Positions 29,590 through 35,246 of a stretch of 64,000 nt of DNA are shown one piece after another. Position 1 is the stretch's first letter; each line of letters begins with the position of its first letter. The stretch is from Escherichia phage AV108, in sequence record OR352938.1. One strand, 5' to 3'. Under the pieces are notes generated by a model, which was given only the letters and a program-made list of their open reading frames with translations, was not told where the DNA came from and searched no databases. The translations under genes and the position numbers were made by a program.

Positions 29590-31641
29590 TTACATTTTAA
29601 ATTTATCTGGCATTGCGTCTACAGATACCAGATCAGCGATAAGCTGACGTAGAGTTGCCTTATCTGCTTTCTTACGTTCGGTTTTAGCTTCGCTAATGAA
29701 GCTGGAGAAAGACAGGTCAGAAGCAGGTTTAATAACACCTTCACGGATGAATGCATCACCGTCCGCGATCATTTCGCCAGATTCTTGTAATGCTGCCAGT
29801 TCATTTTTGTTCATAATATGTGCCTCAATGTAATAAGTTTCTTGTGAATCCGTTGATGCCGTAGCACGAGTTACCGTATCAAAGGATAACACAACACCGC
29901 GAGGAAGTAAAATCTCGCATTCTTTGTAAGCAAATGCTTTGTTACCTACTGGCAAGACAGGGATGTTTTCCGCGCCAGCAATGGAGAAAGCAACATTAGC
30001 GCCACCTTCACCGCGAGAGCCAGCCATAGAATCAACACCAGCAACGGCACTAGCCACGTTTGCATTCCAGCCGCCAAAAATGTTAGGTGCAAGGGAAGTG
30101 CTCACATAGTTTTTAAAGTAAAACGCTTTTTGCTTACGTGCAGTTTCCCACATTTGCGACCGGAAGTCCATACCACGATACAGAATAGTACCCGGATCAA
30201 GTTTAACGCCATAGTTGGAGAAGGCATTATCCAGTGCATCGCACATCTTGACCAATTCTTCTGGATCTGCGATGCCTTCAAACTCTTCCAGCTTACGATC
30301 AGTTAGGAAGTTGTTCATATTGATGTATGCTGCATCGGCATATTCGCTCAACACAAAACCTTCCGCGCCTGGCAGATCAAGATCAATATCTGCCATCATT
30401 TCACCCATGTTACTAGCAATTGCTTCAAACATACCGGAAGCAACATTACGTAGGGCATCGGTTTTAATCTGGGTGATATGACTACGCAGCATTTCAGCTT
30501 TTACATCTGCTGGCATAGACTGGTCTACTCGATCCATTGCTAGGGCGGTGATCTTGTTTTCGAATACTTCCTCGCTCATGATTTCTTTTAAGCGTTTGAT
30601 TGATGCTGCGATAACTTCCGCAGACAACGGATCATATTGATCCTGAACTTTTACCAGTTCGCTTACTGCGTATTTTGCATCGGCTTCGCTTTCAAAAATA
30701 GTACGCATGAAACCATAGCGAGTGATAATATCACTTGTCCAGTCATTCAGAGAACGGGCGGTTGAACGTTCTAAGGCTTGACGGTCAATCAGAGTATTAA
30801 ACTGTTTCTTAGGTTCTGCTTCGGTGATATCTTCTTCCGGTTTAAGATTAATTTTTTCTGGATGATTCACATAGTCGCTGTTATAGGTCGCTTGAGTTTT
30901 CAGCATTTCTTCTTTAGTCAAACGAGATTTAGCCGCTACGCGTTGTTCCGCTTCCGCGTTTCGTTCTTCTTCTGACACAAGACTAGCCGCATACGCTTCA
31001 TCTTTAGTCAGAGATTCACCAGTAGCCTTAGATACCCAGCGATCACCTAAATCACTTTCTACTTTAGTGAACAAGGAATCATCAAGTTTAATCCCTTTAA
31101 TCTTATCAATCGCCATACCGCGACGCTTGACAACAACTAAAGCGATCTTTTTGCTGGTCATTACTTCCTGCTGGAATACTTCAAACTTCGGTGTACGACG
31201 CACCAAACGCTCTATAACGCGCTTAACCAGTTCGGTCTTACCTTTCATGCGGGATACGTTAAAACGGAACATAACAGCGTCTAGTTGCGCTTTACGGGCT
31301 GTTTCCATAACCACATCAAAAGCACTTGACATAACTGCAATCGGGTTATCGCCTAGACCATTTTTAAGCTGTACAATACGACCGCTTTTGTTCATTTCGC
31401 ACAGTACAACATGTGCGGTCTTGTCACCCAGACGAATGATTTTAGGTGTTTTGTTGGTGAAGTTACAAAGACGGACAATCACATCTTTATCGCGTGTCTG
31501 TACTGCAAAAAGCTGTTTAGGATTCTGCTTAGGCTTTAAGCACTGTACCGGAGCAATACTACCAAAGTTTTCTTCCTCTTCCGTCAACAGCCATTTCTCG
31601 AAAGATTCAATCATTAGATCGTCGATTTCTAAGTTAAACAT
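29590..31641 (-). CDS. alt: Alt ADP-ribosyltransferase (injected internal head protein)
   Basis: 683 aa (T4 Alt 682); C-terminal ILYRG...YVSTS...YKECEILLPRG catalytic motifs. Confidence 0.85.
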   Translation of the reverse strand: MFNLEIDDLMIESFEKWLLTEEEENFGSIAPVQCLKPKQNPKQLFAVQTRDKDVIVRLCNFTNKTPKIIRLGDKTAHVVLCEMNKSGRIVQLKNGLGDNPIAVMSSAFDVVMETARKAQLDAVMFRFNVSRMKGKTELVKRVIERLVRRTPKFEVFQQEVMTSKKIALVVVKRRGMAIDKIKGIKLDDSLFTKVESDLGDRWVSKATGESLTKDEAYAASLVSEEERNAEAEQRVAAKSRLTKEEMLKTQATYNSDYVNHPEKINLKPEEDITEAEPKKQFNTLIDRQALERSTARSLNDWTSDIITRYGFMRTIFESEADAKYAVSELVKVQDQYDPLSAEVIAASIKRLKEIMSEEVFENKITALAMDRVDQSMPADVKAEMLRSHITQIKTDALRNVASGMFEAIASNMGEMMADIDLDLPGAEGFVLSEYADAAYINMNNFLTDRKLEEFEGIADPEELVKMCDALDNAFSNYGVKLDPGTILYRGMDFRSQMWETARKQKAFYFKNYVSTSLAPNIFGGWNANVASAVAGVDSMAGSRGEGGANVAFSIAGAENIPVLPVGNKAFAYKECEILLPRGVVLSFDTVTRATASTDSQETYYIEAHIMNKNELAALQESGEMIADGDAFIREGVIKPASDLSFSSFISEAKTERKKADKATLRQLIADLVSVDAMPDKFKM

Positions 31642-31992: not shown

Positions 31993-32172
31993 TTAGAACA
32001 TTTTTGAAATTAATTCTGCTTTGATTTCGCAGAGAACATCTAAAGATTTCTCGTCACCCGCTTTTGCTGCTTCTGCTTGCATTTTTGAAATGGCTTCAAT
32101 GTCAGTGCAATTATAAGCCGCTTGAACTTTAGCTATTGCGATGATTGCCGATTCGATGGTTAAGTGTTTCAT
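31993..32172 (-). CDS. hypothetical small protein (59 aa)
   Basis: ORF with GGAGAA RBS; below track cutoff. Confidence 0.4.
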   Translation of the reverse strand: MKHLTIESAIIAIAKVQAAYNCTDIEAISKMQAEAAKAGDEKSLDVLCEIKAELISKMF

Positions 32173-32204
32173 GTTTGATTCTCCTTTCGTTTCGGTATGT
32201 GTGC

Positions 32205-32234
32205 ATTATAGGGGATCACCGATCCCCCTGTCAA
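32205..32234 (-). promoter_or_regulatory. sigma70-like early promoter with palindromic spacer (PeSL-type)
   Basis: TTGACA - GGGGGATCGGTGATCCCC - TATAAT on minus strand; spacer is an inverted repeat with two GATC. Confidence 0.65.
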
Positions 32235-32241
32235 CAATTTT

Positions 32242-32760
32242 TTAGTTATTTTTTAATTGCTCATCTTGCAATAGGGCAATCACATGCTGGCGATGTTCTT
32301 CCGATTGAGGCACACCGAAAAAGTTTGTTTTGTAGAAATACTCTAATCGGTCTTCTCGTGTGCTCTCTTCCATCATGATCGCGGGTAGTCCGAGATTTCG
32401 GAAACGTCGCTTTTCTGCTGGCGTAAAATCACTGTAATACAACATAGAATCATCATTACAAGCAATGCTAAACTCATCCTTCATAAAGGAGAATATTGCG
32501 TTTAAACGCTGTTTACCGTCCACGATTTCGATCTCATAGCGAGAGCCATCATCAATCTTAGCCATTGCGATAGCACCAACCGGAAAATCATTAATCAGGT
32601 TTTCGATAAACATACGTTTGTTTTCGGTGTCCCATACTAAAGGACGCTGATAATCTGGGTTCATGTTGATATAGCCATCTTCTAACCATGCATCATAAAC
32701 AGAGATGACAAAGTTTTTAGTATTGGTATAGTAACGGCGTTTAGGCGTTAAACGGTTCAT
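32242..32760 (-). CDS. DUF262 / ParB-like nucleotide-binding domain protein
   Basis: 172 aa from ATG 32760 (AGGAG RBS); PDYQRPLVW and IVDGKQRLNAIF match the DUF262 (GmrS-like) signature. Confidence 0.6.
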   Translation of the reverse strand: MNRLTPKRRYYTNTKNFVISVYDAWLEDGYINMNPDYQRPLVWDTENKRMFIENLINDFPVGAIAMAKIDDGSRYEIEIVDGKQRLNAIFSFMKDEFSIACNDDSMLYYSDFTPAEKRRFRNLGLPAIMMEESTREDRLEYFYKTNFFGVPQSEEHRQHVIALLQDEQLKNN

Positions 32761-32761
32761 G

Positions 32762-33094
32762 TTATAGTCTCCTGAATGGATCATCACGTAAATCAATATC
32801 TTTTAAGAACTCAACCCATGAATGCCGGATATTGTTCTTAATTCTCCAGATAAGCGCAGGGATTGAACGCTCTCCCATCTGGAAGTATGGATCATATGAT
32901 CCGTATGCCCAATATGCTACTACAATTCCACAATCAGCGCAATAGTATTCTATTTCACTTGCTGGCGACCAAAGTCCATCAATATGATCGGTGATCTTGC
33001 TTTCGATGTTATGGCTATGACAATCAGGGCAACGGATGCAATGACCTTGTTTATCGTAATTTGACGTTAGCGAATACTTAAACAATCTCATCAT
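32762..33094 (-). CDS. Cys-rich zinc-ribbon-like protein
   Basis: 110 aa with CIRCPDC...CADCG; start overlaps the MTase-like gene stop as ATGA. Confidence 0.55.
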   Translation of the reverse strand: MMRLFKYSLTSNYDKQGHCIRCPDCHSHNIESKITDHIDGLWSPASEIEYYCADCGIVVAYWAYGSYDPYFQMGERSIPALIWRIKNNIRHSWVEFLKDIDLRDDPFRRL

Positions 33095-33807
33095 AGATCC
33101 TTATTGGCTTCAAATACTGCCTTTGCGAATCCTCGCGGGGTAAGTGACCTTATAGTCTTTGTTTTCGTTCCTTTCCCGCCTAGCTTAGAATGCTGTTTAC
33201 TGTACCCTTTATTAATCTGCAACGGTTTCTTTTCTGGCATTATAAAGCCTTGTCCGGTCCATAAGCAAGTCTTTTTCGGGTACATATCACGGGCGGCGAT
33301 ATACTCAGGAAAAGTAGGATGTTTATCATCTTCCGGCAAATAACCGCCATATTCCCACGGATGGAACATGTAATCAGGCTTACGCCACATACTAGAGATA
33401 ACGCTTACAGGATTCTCTATCATGTAGGGAACTCCTAGCCATTCACCCAAATAAGCGGTTATTTTAGCTGCCCTTACATCATGAACTTGAATCAATGGTC
33501 CTTGTTCTAGTTTCTTTCGTTCAAAGTGCGCAGCGCCACTAACAGCTAAATTGGTGCACGGTGGGAATGCAAAGATAATATCCGGTTTCCCCCATTCAAG
33601 GTCCATTGCTCTTTCCAGCCAATTCAAATCAATCCATGTGTTTACATAGGTAATGTTTGGATGTTCAAATCTGGTATTATACTTTTTGTATGTACCGTGG
33701 TCGGCGTCATCCGCATTAAAGCAGACTACCTTATGACCTGCTTTAGCCCATTCTAGCCCCATTATCCCCGATCCGTCAAAGTTGCAGAATATTAATTTTT
33801 GTTTCAT
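33091..33807 (-). CDS. minimal C5-cytosine methyltransferase-like protein
   Basis: 238 aa; motif I-like FCNFDGSG, motif IV-like FPPC..LAVSGA, motif VI-like ENP, C-terminal RSLTPRG; no room for a normal target-recognition domain. Confidence 0.55.
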   Translation of the reverse strand: MKQKLIFCNFDGSGIMGLEWAKAGHKVVCFNADDADHGTYKKYNTRFEHPNITYVNTWIDLNWLERAMDLEWGKPDIIFAFPPCTNLAVSGAAHFERKKLEQGPLIQVHDVRAAKITAYLGEWLGVPYMIENPVSVISSMWRKPDYMFHPWEYGGYLPEDDKHPTFPEYIAARDMYPKKTCLWTGQGFIMPEKKPLQINKGYSKQHSKLGGKGTKTKTIRSLTPRGFAKAVFEANKDL

Positions 33808-34049
33808 ATACGACCCTTTAACCCAGCACAGATTTTAGTCGGTTCTTTACCGTGCCACATTAAGTAAAGTCCGTTAATGCGACCTTGTTTTGTGTGTGAT
33901 TCTTTTCTGATCTTCTTATAGTGTCGTGCTTCCTCAACTGATTGTTTAGAATACCAATCATAAAGGAAGAGGCACAAAGGCCAACCATTAGCGGCCTTAA
34001 TGCAGTTATTAAGAAATTCCTTATTGCGTTTAATTAATTTTCTTTTCAC
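33804..34049 (-). CDS. hypothetical basic protein (81 aa)
   Basis: GTG start overlapping upstream stop (GTGA); coupled to MTase-like gene (ATGA). Confidence 0.45.
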   Translation of the reverse strand: MKRKLIKRNKEFLNNCIKAANGWPLCLFLYDWYSKQSVEEARHYKKIRKESHTKQGRINGLYLMWHGKEPTKICAGLKGRI

Positions 34050-34297
34050 GCTGCCCCCATTGGTTTGATAGTAACAGAATCTAAAAGACCTTTGTTAGCC
34101 AGTTCTCGGCAAGTTTTCAGATCCGCAACTTCCCAGCCAGCCGCAATCAGGTTATCAATCAGGCTGTTAGCAACTTCTTCGCTCATGAAAGAGCACTGTT
34201 TGCCGATGGTGTAGCGCACACGCTGTAATTTCAGTTTACGGAAGCCTTTAACGTTCAGGTCTTTAGCGATTTTCTTTGCGGTTTCGATGTTAACCAT
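34046..34297 (-). CDS. hypothetical protein (83 aa), first gene of coupled operon
   Basis: ATG with GGAGAA RBS directly downstream of a PeSL-type promoter. Confidence 0.5.
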   Translation of the reverse strand: MVNIETAKKIAKDLNVKGFRKLKLQRVRYTIGKQCSFMSEEVANSLIDNLIAAGWEVADLKTCRELANKGLLDSVTIKPMGAA

Positions 34298-34337
34298 TGT
34301 TTGATTCTCCTAAGTGGTATCTCGTCTTGATGGTTGT

Positions 34338-34366
34338 ATTGTAGGGGAGTTATCCTCCCCTGTCAA
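34338..34366 (-). promoter_or_regulatory. sigma70-like early promoter with palindromic spacer (PeSL-type)
   Basis: TTGACA - GGGGAGGATAACTCCCC - TACAAT on minus strand. Confidence 0.6.
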
Positions 34367-34380
34367 CACTTTTTATAAAA

Positions 34381-34548
34381 TTATTTGTTAATTTCTGGTG
34401 CGTTGCTAGGATAGTAACCTTCTTTAACTCCGAGGTATTTCGCAACCATCCCTACAATCTTCTGTGCTACTACAATGTCAAATTTAAGATAATCTTCGCC
34501 GTGGGTTTCAATGATATATGCTTCACATGCTGCTTTAGTCTCGAACAT
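34381..34548 (-). CDS. hypothetical small protein (55 aa), paralog of 37663-37830
   Basis: Almost identical at protein level to the 37663-37830 ORF (EAYI...HGEDYLKFDIVVAQKI.GMVAKYLGVKEGYYPSNAPEINK). Confidence 0.5.
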   Translation of the reverse strand: MFETKAACEAYIIETHGEDYLKFDIVVAQKIVGMVAKYLGVKEGYYPSNAPEINK

Positions 34549-34581
34549 TTTGATTCTCCTATTTAGTTTCGTTATGTGTGC

Positions 34582-34610
34582 ATTATAGGGGATCTCCCGA
34601 TCCCCGTCAA
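34582..34610 (-). promoter_or_regulatory. sigma70-like early promoter with palindromic spacer (PeSL-type)
   Basis: TTGACG - GGGATCGGGAGATCCCC - TATAAT on minus strand. Confidence 0.6.
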
Positions 34611-34976: not shown

Positions 34977-35246
34977 TTAGATATTTTCAGAAATAAATTT
35001 TAAAACTTGACGTAAATGTTTCTCATCTTTGATAGTCGCCGGAAGTTCTTCTTTTACTTCCTGTGCAAGATAGATATTTCCGTTCCAAGTGAAAGATCCG
35101 TCTTCGTTTACGCGATAGCTGAACATCCACTCGCAATCATTTTCGATTTCATATACACACAGAAGGGTGTAATCGTTAAAGCTATTGATTTCAAGGTCGA
35201 AGCCGTGACGTTTTGCAAAGTTGGTAGTGGTTTTAGTCAGCGCCAT
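34977..35246 (-). CDS. hypothetical protein (89 aa)
   Basis: ORF with GGAGAA RBS downstream of promoter 35287-35315. Confidence 0.5.
   Translation of the reverse strand: MALTKTTTNFAKRHGFDLEINSFNDYTLLCVYEIENDCEWMFSYRVNEDGSFTWNGNIYLAQEVKEELPATIKDEKHLRQVLKFISENI

Follow-up and report, generated by a model that had tools for sequence, protein, structure and literature searches.

Five minus-strand genes of a Krischvirus genome quite probably make up a single early unit bounded by PeSL cassettes, in which accessory genes act independently of each other and the third encodes an active C5-cytosine methyltransferase (C5-MTase). They lie in a window of 64,000 nucleotides from Escherichia phage AV108 (OR352938.1), the whole stretch of DNA that was analysed, which belongs to an RB49-like coliphage (99.6% to phage FL15, 97.5% to RB49). 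The unit would be transcribed from the hyperplastic region of the genome, and gene 3 would act as a post-replicative methylase which, early in infection, modifies phage and host DNA at a restricted number of sites. Its likely benefit would be protection from some cytosine-sensitive restriction enzymes, and its likely cost visibility to methylation-sensing defences (retron Ec86, type IV enzymes). Gene 5 would provide a nuclease-less nucleotide-binding protein, whose family is also represented, with no accompanying methylase, among T4-like phages and prophages, and genes 1, 2 and 4 would encode small accessory proteins, that of gene 4 being a zinc ribbon. The coordinates are collected in Table 1.

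Table 1. Genes of the five-gene unit and the PeSL cassettes on either side of it (positions in the window).
Feature	Position	Strand	Product or basis	RB49 counterpart
PeSL early promoter of the five-gene unit	34338..34366	-	sequence reading; promoter and stem-loop-in-spacer scans	
Gene 1	34046..34297	-	83 aa	RB49p190
Gene 2	33804..34049	-	81 aa, GTG start	RB49p189.1
Gene 3	33091..33807	-	238 aa, predicted compact C5-MTase	RB49p189
Gene 4	32762..33094	-	110 aa, four-Cys zinc ribbon	RB49p188
Gene 5	32242..32760	-	172 aa, stand-alone ParB/Srx-fold DUF262	RB49p187
Next PeSL cassette	32205..32234	-	promoter scan; stem-loop-in-spacer scan	

The five reading frames stand in the ORF listing where the initial annotation had placed them, and the translational coupling it described was borne out at every junction read from the sequence: GCAGCGTGA / GTGAAA between genes 1 and 2 (34049), ATATGA / ATGAAA between genes 2 and 3 (33807), CTATGA / ATGATG between genes 3 and 4 (33094) and CTATAAcATG between genes 4 and 5 (32762/32760), giving the series GTGA, ATGA, ATGA, TAAcATG. 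For gene 5 the listing gives a TTG start at 32796; we prefer the ATG at 32760, because AGGAG stands 8 nt upstream of it and the RB49 annotation (519 nt) starts there. Since stop/start overlaps are ordinary in phage early regions, the arrangement is real without being statistically remarkable.

Two PeSL promoter/stem-loop cassettes flank the unit. The one PeSL-type promoter proposed for it was found upstream of gene 1 as TTGACA-GGGGAGGATAACTCCCC-TACAAT, with near-consensus hexamers (11/12 matches in the promoter scan) and a 17-nt spacer that folds as a 6-bp G/C stem-loop, GGGGAG/CTCCCC. Right behind the stop codon of gene 5 follows a second promoter, TTGACA-GGGGGATCGGTGATCCCC-TATAAT, which scores 12/12 in the same scan and has a 7-bp stem in its spacer. 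Inside the five-gene unit the scan revealed no promoter of comparable strength and no convincing terminator. Both cassettes are intergenic and combine near-consensus sigma-70 -35/-10 elements, a G/C-rich stem-loop, and a Shine-Dalgarno sequence with start codon, as the definition of PeSL has it. Such promoter-early stem-loop cassettes were described in RB49 and phi1 in 2010, where their stem-loops serve as terminators and PeSL-mediated shuffling is documented (PMC2839356). By its sequence, the upstream cassette is predicted to drive all five genes. The stem-loop of the downstream cassette, by analogy, probably attenuates or terminates their transcript, and its promoter is predicted to drive the following 59-aa gene (31993-32172).

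All five proteins match PHROG profiles, with E-values from gene 1 to gene 5 of 2.5e-58, 3.9e-38, 3.2e-90, 4.7e-34 and 1.1e-52; the families are 14908, 7065, 757 and 2993 for genes 1 to 4. NCBIfam gave no match for four of the five. The locus already carries the GenBank labels 'DNA methyltransferase', 'Dcm' or 'DUF262 domain protein' in more than 50 genomes, and as all five genes are annotated there, the novelty first ascribed to them was overstated. Between Krischvirus genomes, synonymous changes exceed non-synonymous ones in genes 3 (16:3, 23:6), 5 (9:2) and 4 (8:3), an excess that is absent in gene 2 (9:6, 8:7, 2:7).

By analogy with its characterised relative, gene 3 is predicted to encode a DNA cytosine-C5 methyltransferase that depends on SAM and belongs to the compact 'Dcm-like' enzymes of phages. 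It matches PHROG 757 over residues 1-237 and the Dcm-like protein Bas06_0055 of phage KarlJaspers over its full length (E 9e-93, 238 vs 236 aa) at 55% identity, a figure measured against the protein of KarlJaspers, the phage to which K42, the source of the activity data below, is 95% related. As initially annotated, the C5-MTase motifs I, IV, VI and IX/X stand in canonical order, and the AF2 model (pLDDT 90.7, pTM 0.89) has the C5-MTase fold. Among 22 aligned homologs, F10, G12, S13 and G14 of the motif I SAM loop (F10-D-G12-S13-G14) are invariant, and the loop aligns with FSGAG of M.HaeIII. Invariant as well are motif IV (P82-P83-C84), which aligns with the PPC (C71) of M.HaeIII and contains the predicted catalytic Cys84, and motif VI (E131-N132-P133) with the predicted catalytic Glu131. 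Motifs IX/X comprise R220-S-L-T-P-R225-G-F-A, invariant at R220-S-L and R225-G, together with an invariant C-terminal N235. The QxRxR of motif VIII is absent from gene 3, and an invariant W141-R142 stands behind motif VI in the same alignment. Of the strings quoted in the initial annotation, FPPCTNLAVSG, ENP, RSLTPRG and, in gene 5, PDYQRPLVW and IVDGKQRL are present; 'F.FDGSG' is one residue off, the actual string being FCNFDGSG. In the expected covalent mechanism, Cys84 would attack C6 of a flipped-out cytosine and Glu131 would protonate N3, with the methyl group coming from SAM at the FDGSG loop.

Because the sequence of gene 3 is by itself insufficient, we rely on structure, and membership of the C5-MTases is argued from fold, motifs and homolog together. 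Pfam PF00145 gives the protein 14.6 bits against a gathering score of 22 and covers residues 10-93 only, with a precomputed match on a few of its homologs. A single-sequence search against PDB sequences returned only a chance match, the family profile barely detects solved C5-MTases (M.HaeIII at E 1.2), and identity to solved structures is 12-17%. The closest structures to the model are DNMT3 catalytic domains, which likewise have only a small target-recognition domain. The remark that the protein is too short for a standard target-recognition domain holds relative to bacterial type II enzymes, whose sizeable domain of ~80+ residues is not present here. A conserved insert of ~65 residues occupies the corresponding position, and family members are small throughout (210-260 aa in 1137 clusters at 50% identity).

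The activity expected of gene 3 is that of its phage homolog. K42 Dcm deposits 5mC on the msDNA of retron Ec86 and triggers that retron, and disruption of dcm leads to escape; expression of the enzyme raises msDNA 5mC as measured by LC-MS, which an inactive quadruple mutant, with C82, E128, K175 and K176 changed together, does not (bioRxiv 10.1101/2023.08.16.553469). The four residues correspond to C84, E131, K178 and K179 of gene 3, all of them conserved. The CCWGG specificity of the K42 enzyme is assumed by analogy. In the window, CCWGG (25 vs 64-70) and GGCC (22 vs 66-108) are strongly under-represented, which counts against self-protection, since a phage that protected these sites would have no need to avoid them. 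The site statistics show GAATTC to be avoided too and, with all three sites scarce, are uninformative as a pointer to the methylase target. A non-specific enzyme lacking any target-recognition domain was ruled out, as HpaII and NheI cut RB49 DNA (PMC4041780) and TB34 DNA has no bulk modified nucleoside (PMC13390438).

Gene 5 is predicted to be a stand-alone ParB/Srx-fold, GmrS-like nucleotide-binding domain, and its description as a DUF262 protein without nuclease partner proved correct. It passes Pfam PF03235 with 72.7 bits (cut-off 33.2), no DUF1524/HNH domain was found in it, and no nuclease subunit adjoins it, the next gene being the 59-aa ORF with its own promoter; accordingly, gene 5 does not encode a restriction enzyme. 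Its invariant motifs are YQR..VW, DGKQR (D81-G-K-Q-R85) and NF.GVPQS.EH. In the model, a ParB-like domain with the fold of the ParB N-terminal domain is followed by a terminal helix that ends at residue 172; 134 residues superpose on BrxU, with 17% identity over the aligned region, and there is a resemblance to the sensor subunits PD-T4-2_A and NsnA. A word-indexed search for homologs gave 7 matches and an alignment-based re-search 2868.

The remaining genes are small. The DRT model RT_UG35 of PADLOC matches gene 1 weakly, with a C-terminal segment (E 2.4e-5). The match of gene 2 to PHROG 7065 covers the profile from position 1, and its homologs extend to T5-like and other T4-like phages at ~35% identity. 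The gene is cleanly missing from one Krischvirus contig (L009), and this absence, together with a synonymous to non-synonymous ratio of about 1:1, shows it to be dispensable and under relaxed constraint. The Cys-rich protein of the initial annotation, encoded by gene 4, could be specified as a four-Cys zinc ribbon (C21xxC24 ... C52xxC55) with weak zinc-ribbon matches in Pfam, the best being Zn_Ribbon_TF at E 5.7e-4. Its homologs in Nonagvirus 9g/JenK1 are 41-44% identical and have no adjoining methylase.

The proposal that the combination serves as a modification or anti-defence module did not withstand comparison across phages. Record counts differ from gene to gene, with gene 1 in 56 phage records (all Krischvirus, by tblastn), gene 2 in 171, gene 3 in 1520, gene 4 in 274 and gene 5 in 326. 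Neighbouring partners were sought by tblastn at E<=1e-3, a cut-off at which very divergent partner analogues are missed: none of 78 non-Krischvirus methylase loci includes another of the five genes within 5 kb, and none of 78 non-Krischvirus short-DUF262 loci has a methylase within 4 kb. No conserved partner was found near either gene elsewhere, the neighbours being replication genes, integrase, Ea22-like and unassigned proteins. The loss of gene 2 in one contig also speaks against a module. The complete five-gene set was seen in Krischvirus records only, and four of the five genes stand together, translationally coupled, in essentially all 56 of them. This joint retention is compatible with a lineage-specific functional link and does not require one; we would ascribe the linkage to PeSL-mediated recombination, which shuffles such cassettes, and not to membership of one machine. 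The combination is not known to be part of the T4 gene set.

That the Krischvirus methylase has nonetheless gained lineage-specific partners, be it a ParB/DUF262 loader or activator (with or without the zinc ribbon) or a DUF262 decoy against GmrSD/BrxU/Menshen-type sensors, seems unlikely. Loading, activation or targeting of gene 3 on dsDNA by the zinc-ribbon and/or ParB/DUF262 protein would suit the way in which genes 3, 4 and 5 are closely coupled in translation, their retention in all Krischvirus records examined, the very small target-recognition insert of gene 3 and the precedent of a phage enzyme that needs a ParB-like activator on dsDNA (PMC13229309); the invariant DUF262 nucleotide-binding motifs also suggest that gene 5 is probably enzymatically competent. 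We nevertheless hold this to be quite unlikely: the uniformly small methylases occur alone in 1520 phage records, no gene-4 or gene-5 homolog lies near the 78 methylase loci outside Krischvirus, whose neighbours carry no ParB/DUF262 domain, short DUF262 proteins do without a methylase at the 78 other loci, and the K42 homolog raises 5mC when alone on a plasmid. A decoy would heteromerise, or compete for DNA/NTP, with host GmrSD/BrxU/SspE-type enzymes and so neutralise type IV restriction of the 5mC made by gene 3, making the linkage of genes 3 and 5 adaptive, not mechanistic. The gene 5 domain is the one that forms the sensor/NTPase half in GmrSD, BrxU and SspE, its likeness to PD-T4-2_A and NsnA fits the same role, and its relatives are found in T4-like early accessory regions and in the prophage Ea22/exo-xis region. 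Such domains can associate, as a ParB_n-only GmrS pairs with GmrSD in natural two-gene systems (PMC12373910), and Krischvirus TB34, whose gene 5 protein is 99.4% identical to that of the window (a value for TB34 alone), resists BrxU (PMC13390438). However, the unmodified cytosines of TB34 account for its resistance, and SAP, with the same operon, is BrxU-sensitive; an identity of 17% to BrxU does not imply specific heteromerisation, and most methylase-bearing phages lack such a protein, which leaves the decoy improbable.

SAP also raises the question of another chemistry, in which gene 3 would transfer a hydroxymethyl (formaldehyde) or carboxymethyl (Cx-SAM) group, or act on nucleotides/RNA, and be the source of the modifications in this phage. 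SAP DNA contains 5-hmdC and glycosylated derivatives, and Krischvirus has no genes for dCMP hydroxymethylase or glucosyltransferase; yet TB34, 99.96% identical to SAP and with the same operon, has canonical cytosines, and the SAP profile is that of seven Tequatrovirus phages in the same collection (PMC13390438). Over 5.5 kb round the operon, SAP is set apart from TB34 by a PeSL duplication of 79 bp downstream of gene 5, by four homopolymeric indels of 1 bp each and by 2 bases left unaligned at the edge of the compared stretch, and operon differences were rejected as the cause of the modification. As the digestion of RB49 DNA by HpaII and NheI (PMC4041780) and the formation of 5mC by the K42 homolog likewise oppose it, we regard this chemistry as highly improbable. 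With the same genes present in an unmodified sibling, the operon no longer offers a ready explanation for the hydroxymethyl- and glycosyl-cytosine of SAP, which is more simply explained outside it, possibly by sample composition.

The reading of an active methylase among independent accessory genes has modest practical value: the RB49p189 protein is now assigned to methylases for whose family there is evidence of activity in vivo. Krischvirus phages serve in cocktails for phage therapy and in defence-system panels, and the family placement predicts their sensitivity to retron Ec86/Eco1 and type IV enzymes as well as protection from some cytosine-sensitive restriction enzymes. Of wider interest is the role of short nuclease-less DUF262 proteins, which recur in T4-like phages and prophages; if true, a loader or decoy role would be the first function assigned to stand-alone phage DUF262 proteins.

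Compared with known systems, gene 3 shares its motifs and four key residues (C, E, KK) with the Dcm-like enzymes of K42/KarlJaspers, and both are stand-alone enzymes encoded by early genes of virulent coliphages. K42/KarlJaspers is a Drexlerviridae siphovirus, whereas the phage carrying gene 3 is a Straboviridae myovirus, and only gene 3 lies within a translationally coupled five-gene unit. Relative to E. coli Dcm, M.HhaI and M.HaeIII (PF00145), gene 3 is ~90 residues shorter than the bacterial type II enzymes; structurally it is closest to the catalytic domain of DNMT3A/3B. Similarly, gene 5 has the ParB/Srx fold and the nucleotide-binding motifs YQR..W and DG(Q/K)QR in common with GmrSD, BrxU, SspE, DndI, Menshen NsnA and GmrS1, the last being the ParB_n-only subunit of two-gene type IV systems in which it is paired with a GmrSD protein (PMC12373910). 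In contrast to these, it has 172 aa only, with neither a DUF1524/HNH nuclease nor a ParBDB DNA-binding domain and with no gene for a partner nuclease or ATPase in its vicinity, and it is phage-encoded and early-expressed, whereas they reside in host defence islands.

The ParB176 protein of the phage thymine dioxygenase 5mYOX176 (PMC13229309) offers a parallel for genes 5 and 3, as a ParB-fold protein beside a post-replicative base modifier. It differs in having a canonical ParB NBD and a C-terminal dimerisation domain in place of DUF262, and in the enzyme that it partners; there the pairing is conserved and experimentally demonstrated, whereas the putative pairing of genes 3 and 5 occurs in a single genus only. 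The PeSL cassettes of RB49 and phi1 (PMC2839356, PMC4122927) have a layout identical to that seen here, a near-consensus sigma-70 promoter with G/C stem-loop ahead of a Shine-Dalgarno sequence and start codon, and they too flank accessory ORFs in the hyperplastic region. There is no essential difference between the two, the present unit having five genes per PeSL and its immediate neighbours one.

By nucleotide match, the source phage of the window is a Krischvirus, an RB49-like T4-type coliphage: positions 32100-34600 show a 99.6% match to Escherichia phage FL15 and one of 97.5% to RB49, and at least 80% of this segment is covered in 55 phage records. The five minus-strand ORFs and the GTGA, ATGA, ATGA and TAAcATG junctions described in the initial annotation were all found in the sequence. 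Each flanking promoter has a hairpin in its spacer, as in the promoter-early stem-loop (PeSL) architecture of RB49 and phi1, where a strong promoter is combined with a hairpin that terminates transcription (PMC2839356). A promoter and terminator scan of the five-gene unit revealed no promoter of comparable strength and no convincing terminator inside it; neighbouring PeSL-type promoters have one small ORF each. Each of the five products aligns with a PHROG family over its full length. Between Krischvirus genomes, synonymous changes are in the majority in p83, p238, p110 and p172 (products named by length in amino acids) and not in p81. An arrangement of this kind is ordinary in phage early regions. 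Downstream of the operon, at about 600 bp and beyond two PeSL-type cassettes with one gene each, lies a gene for an Alt-like RNA polymerase ADP-ribosyltransferase.

Features of the operon and its surroundings (window coordinates)
Feature	Coordinates	Strand	RB49 equivalent	Remarks
89-aa ORF	34977-35246	-		two cassettes upstream of the operon
Upstream PeSL promoter	34366-34338	-		TTGACA-GGGGAGGATAACTCCCC-TACAAT, G/C hairpin in spacer
p83	34046-34297	-	RB49p190	gene 1
p81	33804-34049	-	RB49p189.1	gene 2
p238	33091-33807	-	RB49p189	gene 3, methylase
p110	32762-33094	-	RB49p188	gene 4
p172	32242-32760	-	RB49p187	gene 5, DUF262 protein
Downstream PeSL promoter	32234-32205	-		directly after the unit; TTGACA-GGGGGATCGGTGATCCCC-TATAAT, G/C hairpin in spacer
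Alt-like gene	29590-31641	-	RB49p184	683 aa

The assignment of p238 to C5-cytosine methyltransferase-like enzymes and of p172 to DUF262 proved correct. Against Pfam PF00145 the methylase scores below threshold (14.6 bits, cut-off 22) and through motifs I-IV only; it matches PHROG 757 (‘DNA methyltransferase’) with E 3e-90. The positions invariant in a 22-member alignment (F10/G12/S13/G14, P82-P83-C84, E131-N132-P133, W141-R142, R220-S-L..R225-G and N235) correspond, in canonical order, to C5-methyltransferase motifs I, IV, VI and IX/X. The proteins of this family are very numerous and of uniformly small size, with 7315 matches in a set of 5.8 billion proteins; grouping at 50% identity gives 1137 clusters, almost all of them of 210-260 aa. 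Homologs are distributed over Drexlerviridae, Dhillonvirus-like, Webervirus, rV5-like, 9NA-like and other phages.

The DUF262 protein p172 passes the Pfam GmrSD_N/DUF262 threshold (E 6e-20) and has PADLOC matches to the sensor subunits NsnA (Menshen) and PD-T4-2_A. Its family profile finds the solved DUF262 proteins BrxU, SspE and 9jfl, the last from the phosphorothioation-sensing system DndBCDE-DndI, and its structure model is confident (pLDDT 93.5). Three motifs, YQR..VW, DGKQR and NF.GVPQS.EH, do not vary across the short DUF262 family, which makes it probable that the protein still binds nucleotides. A type IV restriction enzyme is ruled out because there is neither a nuclease domain in the protein nor an adjoining nuclease gene. 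Other T4-like phages (Slopekvirus, Karamvirus, and Pectobacterium, Yersinia and Pantoea phages) and Salmonella prophages, ST64B among them, encode relatives of 160-190 aa. In Slopekvirus and Karamvirus the short gene is translationally coupled to one for a protein of about 304-319 aa with no Pfam match (Klebsiella phage VAC66, locus L006, 2926-4418); this neighbour, present in 8 of 78 loci, is possibly a lineage-specific partner.

Among the small proteins, p110, a four-Cys zinc ribbon, is related to proteins of Nonagvirus 9g/JenK1 and distantly to ones of Felixounavirus, p81 has relatives of about 35% identity in T5-like and other T4-like phages, and a phage record search found p83 in Krischvirus only. 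The Krischvirus contig IMGVR_UViG_3300045988_033703 (L009, 4843-5714) precisely lacks p81; there the methylase start adjoins the C-terminal part of the 83-aa gene, whose first 30 or so codons show no recognisable conservation. PADLOC also matches p83 (E 2.4e-5) to positions 721-785 of 938 in RT_UG35, a model of a DRT defence reverse transcriptase, and mimicry or chance could account for this likeness to part of the C-terminal region of a defence protein.

The operon had been read as a possible modification or anti-restriction/anti-defence module, and linkage does not support this. The genes differ widely in their distribution (56 phage records for p83, 171 for p81, 1520 for p238, 274 for p110 and 326 for p172), and all five occur together only in Krischvirus. 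In 80 IMG/VR methylase loci a partner gene lies within 5 kb only in the two from Krischvirus (0/78 elsewhere), and in 80 short-DUF262 loci the methylase lies within 4 kb again only in the two Krischvirus ones (0/78 elsewhere). Elsewhere the methylase neighbours replication genes (DUF3987 primase/helicase-like, SNF2 helicase, DNA polymerase), and the DUF262 protein integrase, Ead/Ea22-like and unidentified genes. Furthermore, the related enzyme of phage K42 works when expressed alone (bioRxiv 10.1101/2023.08.16.553469). Most simply, five independent accessory genes would have come to lie behind one promoter by PeSL-mediated shuffling (PMC2839356). The 89-aa ORF, which has no Pfam match, shares 63% identity (E 1e-43) with a protein whose gene, in 23 of the 78 loci outside Krischvirus, lies upstream of the Dcm-like gene and no more than 2.5 kb from it, and this suggests that Krischvirus and T1-like siphophages swapped accessory genes of one neighbourhood.

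Functional coupling within Krischvirus could take two forms. The DUF262 protein might help the methylase, which we consider quite improbable; the precedent is a phage DNA-modifying enzyme that a ParB-fold protein activates on duplex DNA (PMC13229309). It might instead be a decoy against sensors of the 5mC that the methylase would make, given that in two-gene type IV systems GmrSD nucleases have ParB_n-only GmrS subunits as partners (PMC12373910); this, too, is a long shot. A further proposal would have the methylase underlie the hydroxymethyl- or glycosyl-cytosine reported for Krischvirus SAP. Modified cytosines are reported for SAP and canonical ones for TB34 (PMC13390438), but this unmodified sibling has the same operon and differs little from SAP around it, making the proposal unlikely. 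Over 5.5 kb around the operon the two differ by a 79-bp duplication downstream of gene 5, four 1-bp indels and 2 unaligned bases at the stretch edge. The tandem PeSL duplication (SAP, OZ034687, 1575-1653; TB34, OX001802; window about 32170-32245) creates the annotated ORF SAP_052 and looks like a PeSL-mediated rearrangement; it is unlikely to explain the difference in modification.

Independent accessory genes remain the simplest reading, and the methylation itself appears limited in extent. HpaII and NheI cut RB49 DNA (PMC4041780) and HPLC-MS detected no modified nucleosides in TB34 virion DNA (PMC13390438), which together indicate site-limited rather than global methylation in Krischvirus; for scale, the 25 CCWGG sites in 64 kb would amount to roughly 0.2% of cytosines. 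Restriction-site avoidance in the whole window (1-64000) is strong: GAATTC occurs 0 times against 16-20 expected, GGCC 22 against 66-108, CCWGG 25 against 64-70 and CCSGG 15 against 33-44. GATC is not avoided (354 against 232-345).

The novelty claimed for the operon is not supported, as its components are already annotated, PeSL cassettes are published and the methylase family is characterised in a close relative. RB49 p189 is labelled ‘DNA methyltransferase’, its counterparts in other records ‘Dcm’, ‘putative methyltransferase’ or ‘C-5 cytosine DNA methylase’, and those of p187 ‘DUF262 domain protein’. Along its whole length p238 shares 55% identity (E 9e-93) with Bas06_0055 of phage KarlJaspers. 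The KarlJaspers genome is 95.4% identical to that of K42, the phage used in a preprint on retron Ec86 (bioRxiv 10.1101/2023.08.16.553469; later cited as ‘DNA methylation activates retron Ec86 filaments’). CCWGG specificity of the K42 enzyme was borrowed there from E. coli Dcm by analogy, with indirect support from mutating the msDNA motif, and therefore CCWGG should not be taken as the established target site of the family. MG1655, the host, encodes a Dcm of its own, but empty-vector msDNA contains little 5mC and the retron is untriggered, so the phage enzyme may target a different cytosine or context. In the same study, all four K42 escape mutants had the 711-bp dcm gene disrupted or potentially disrupted, and its expression was toxic only with the retron present. 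Expression also raised 5-methylcytosine on msDNA (LC-MS), an effect lost on mutating C82, E128, K175 and K176, which align with C84, E131, K178 and K179 of p238.
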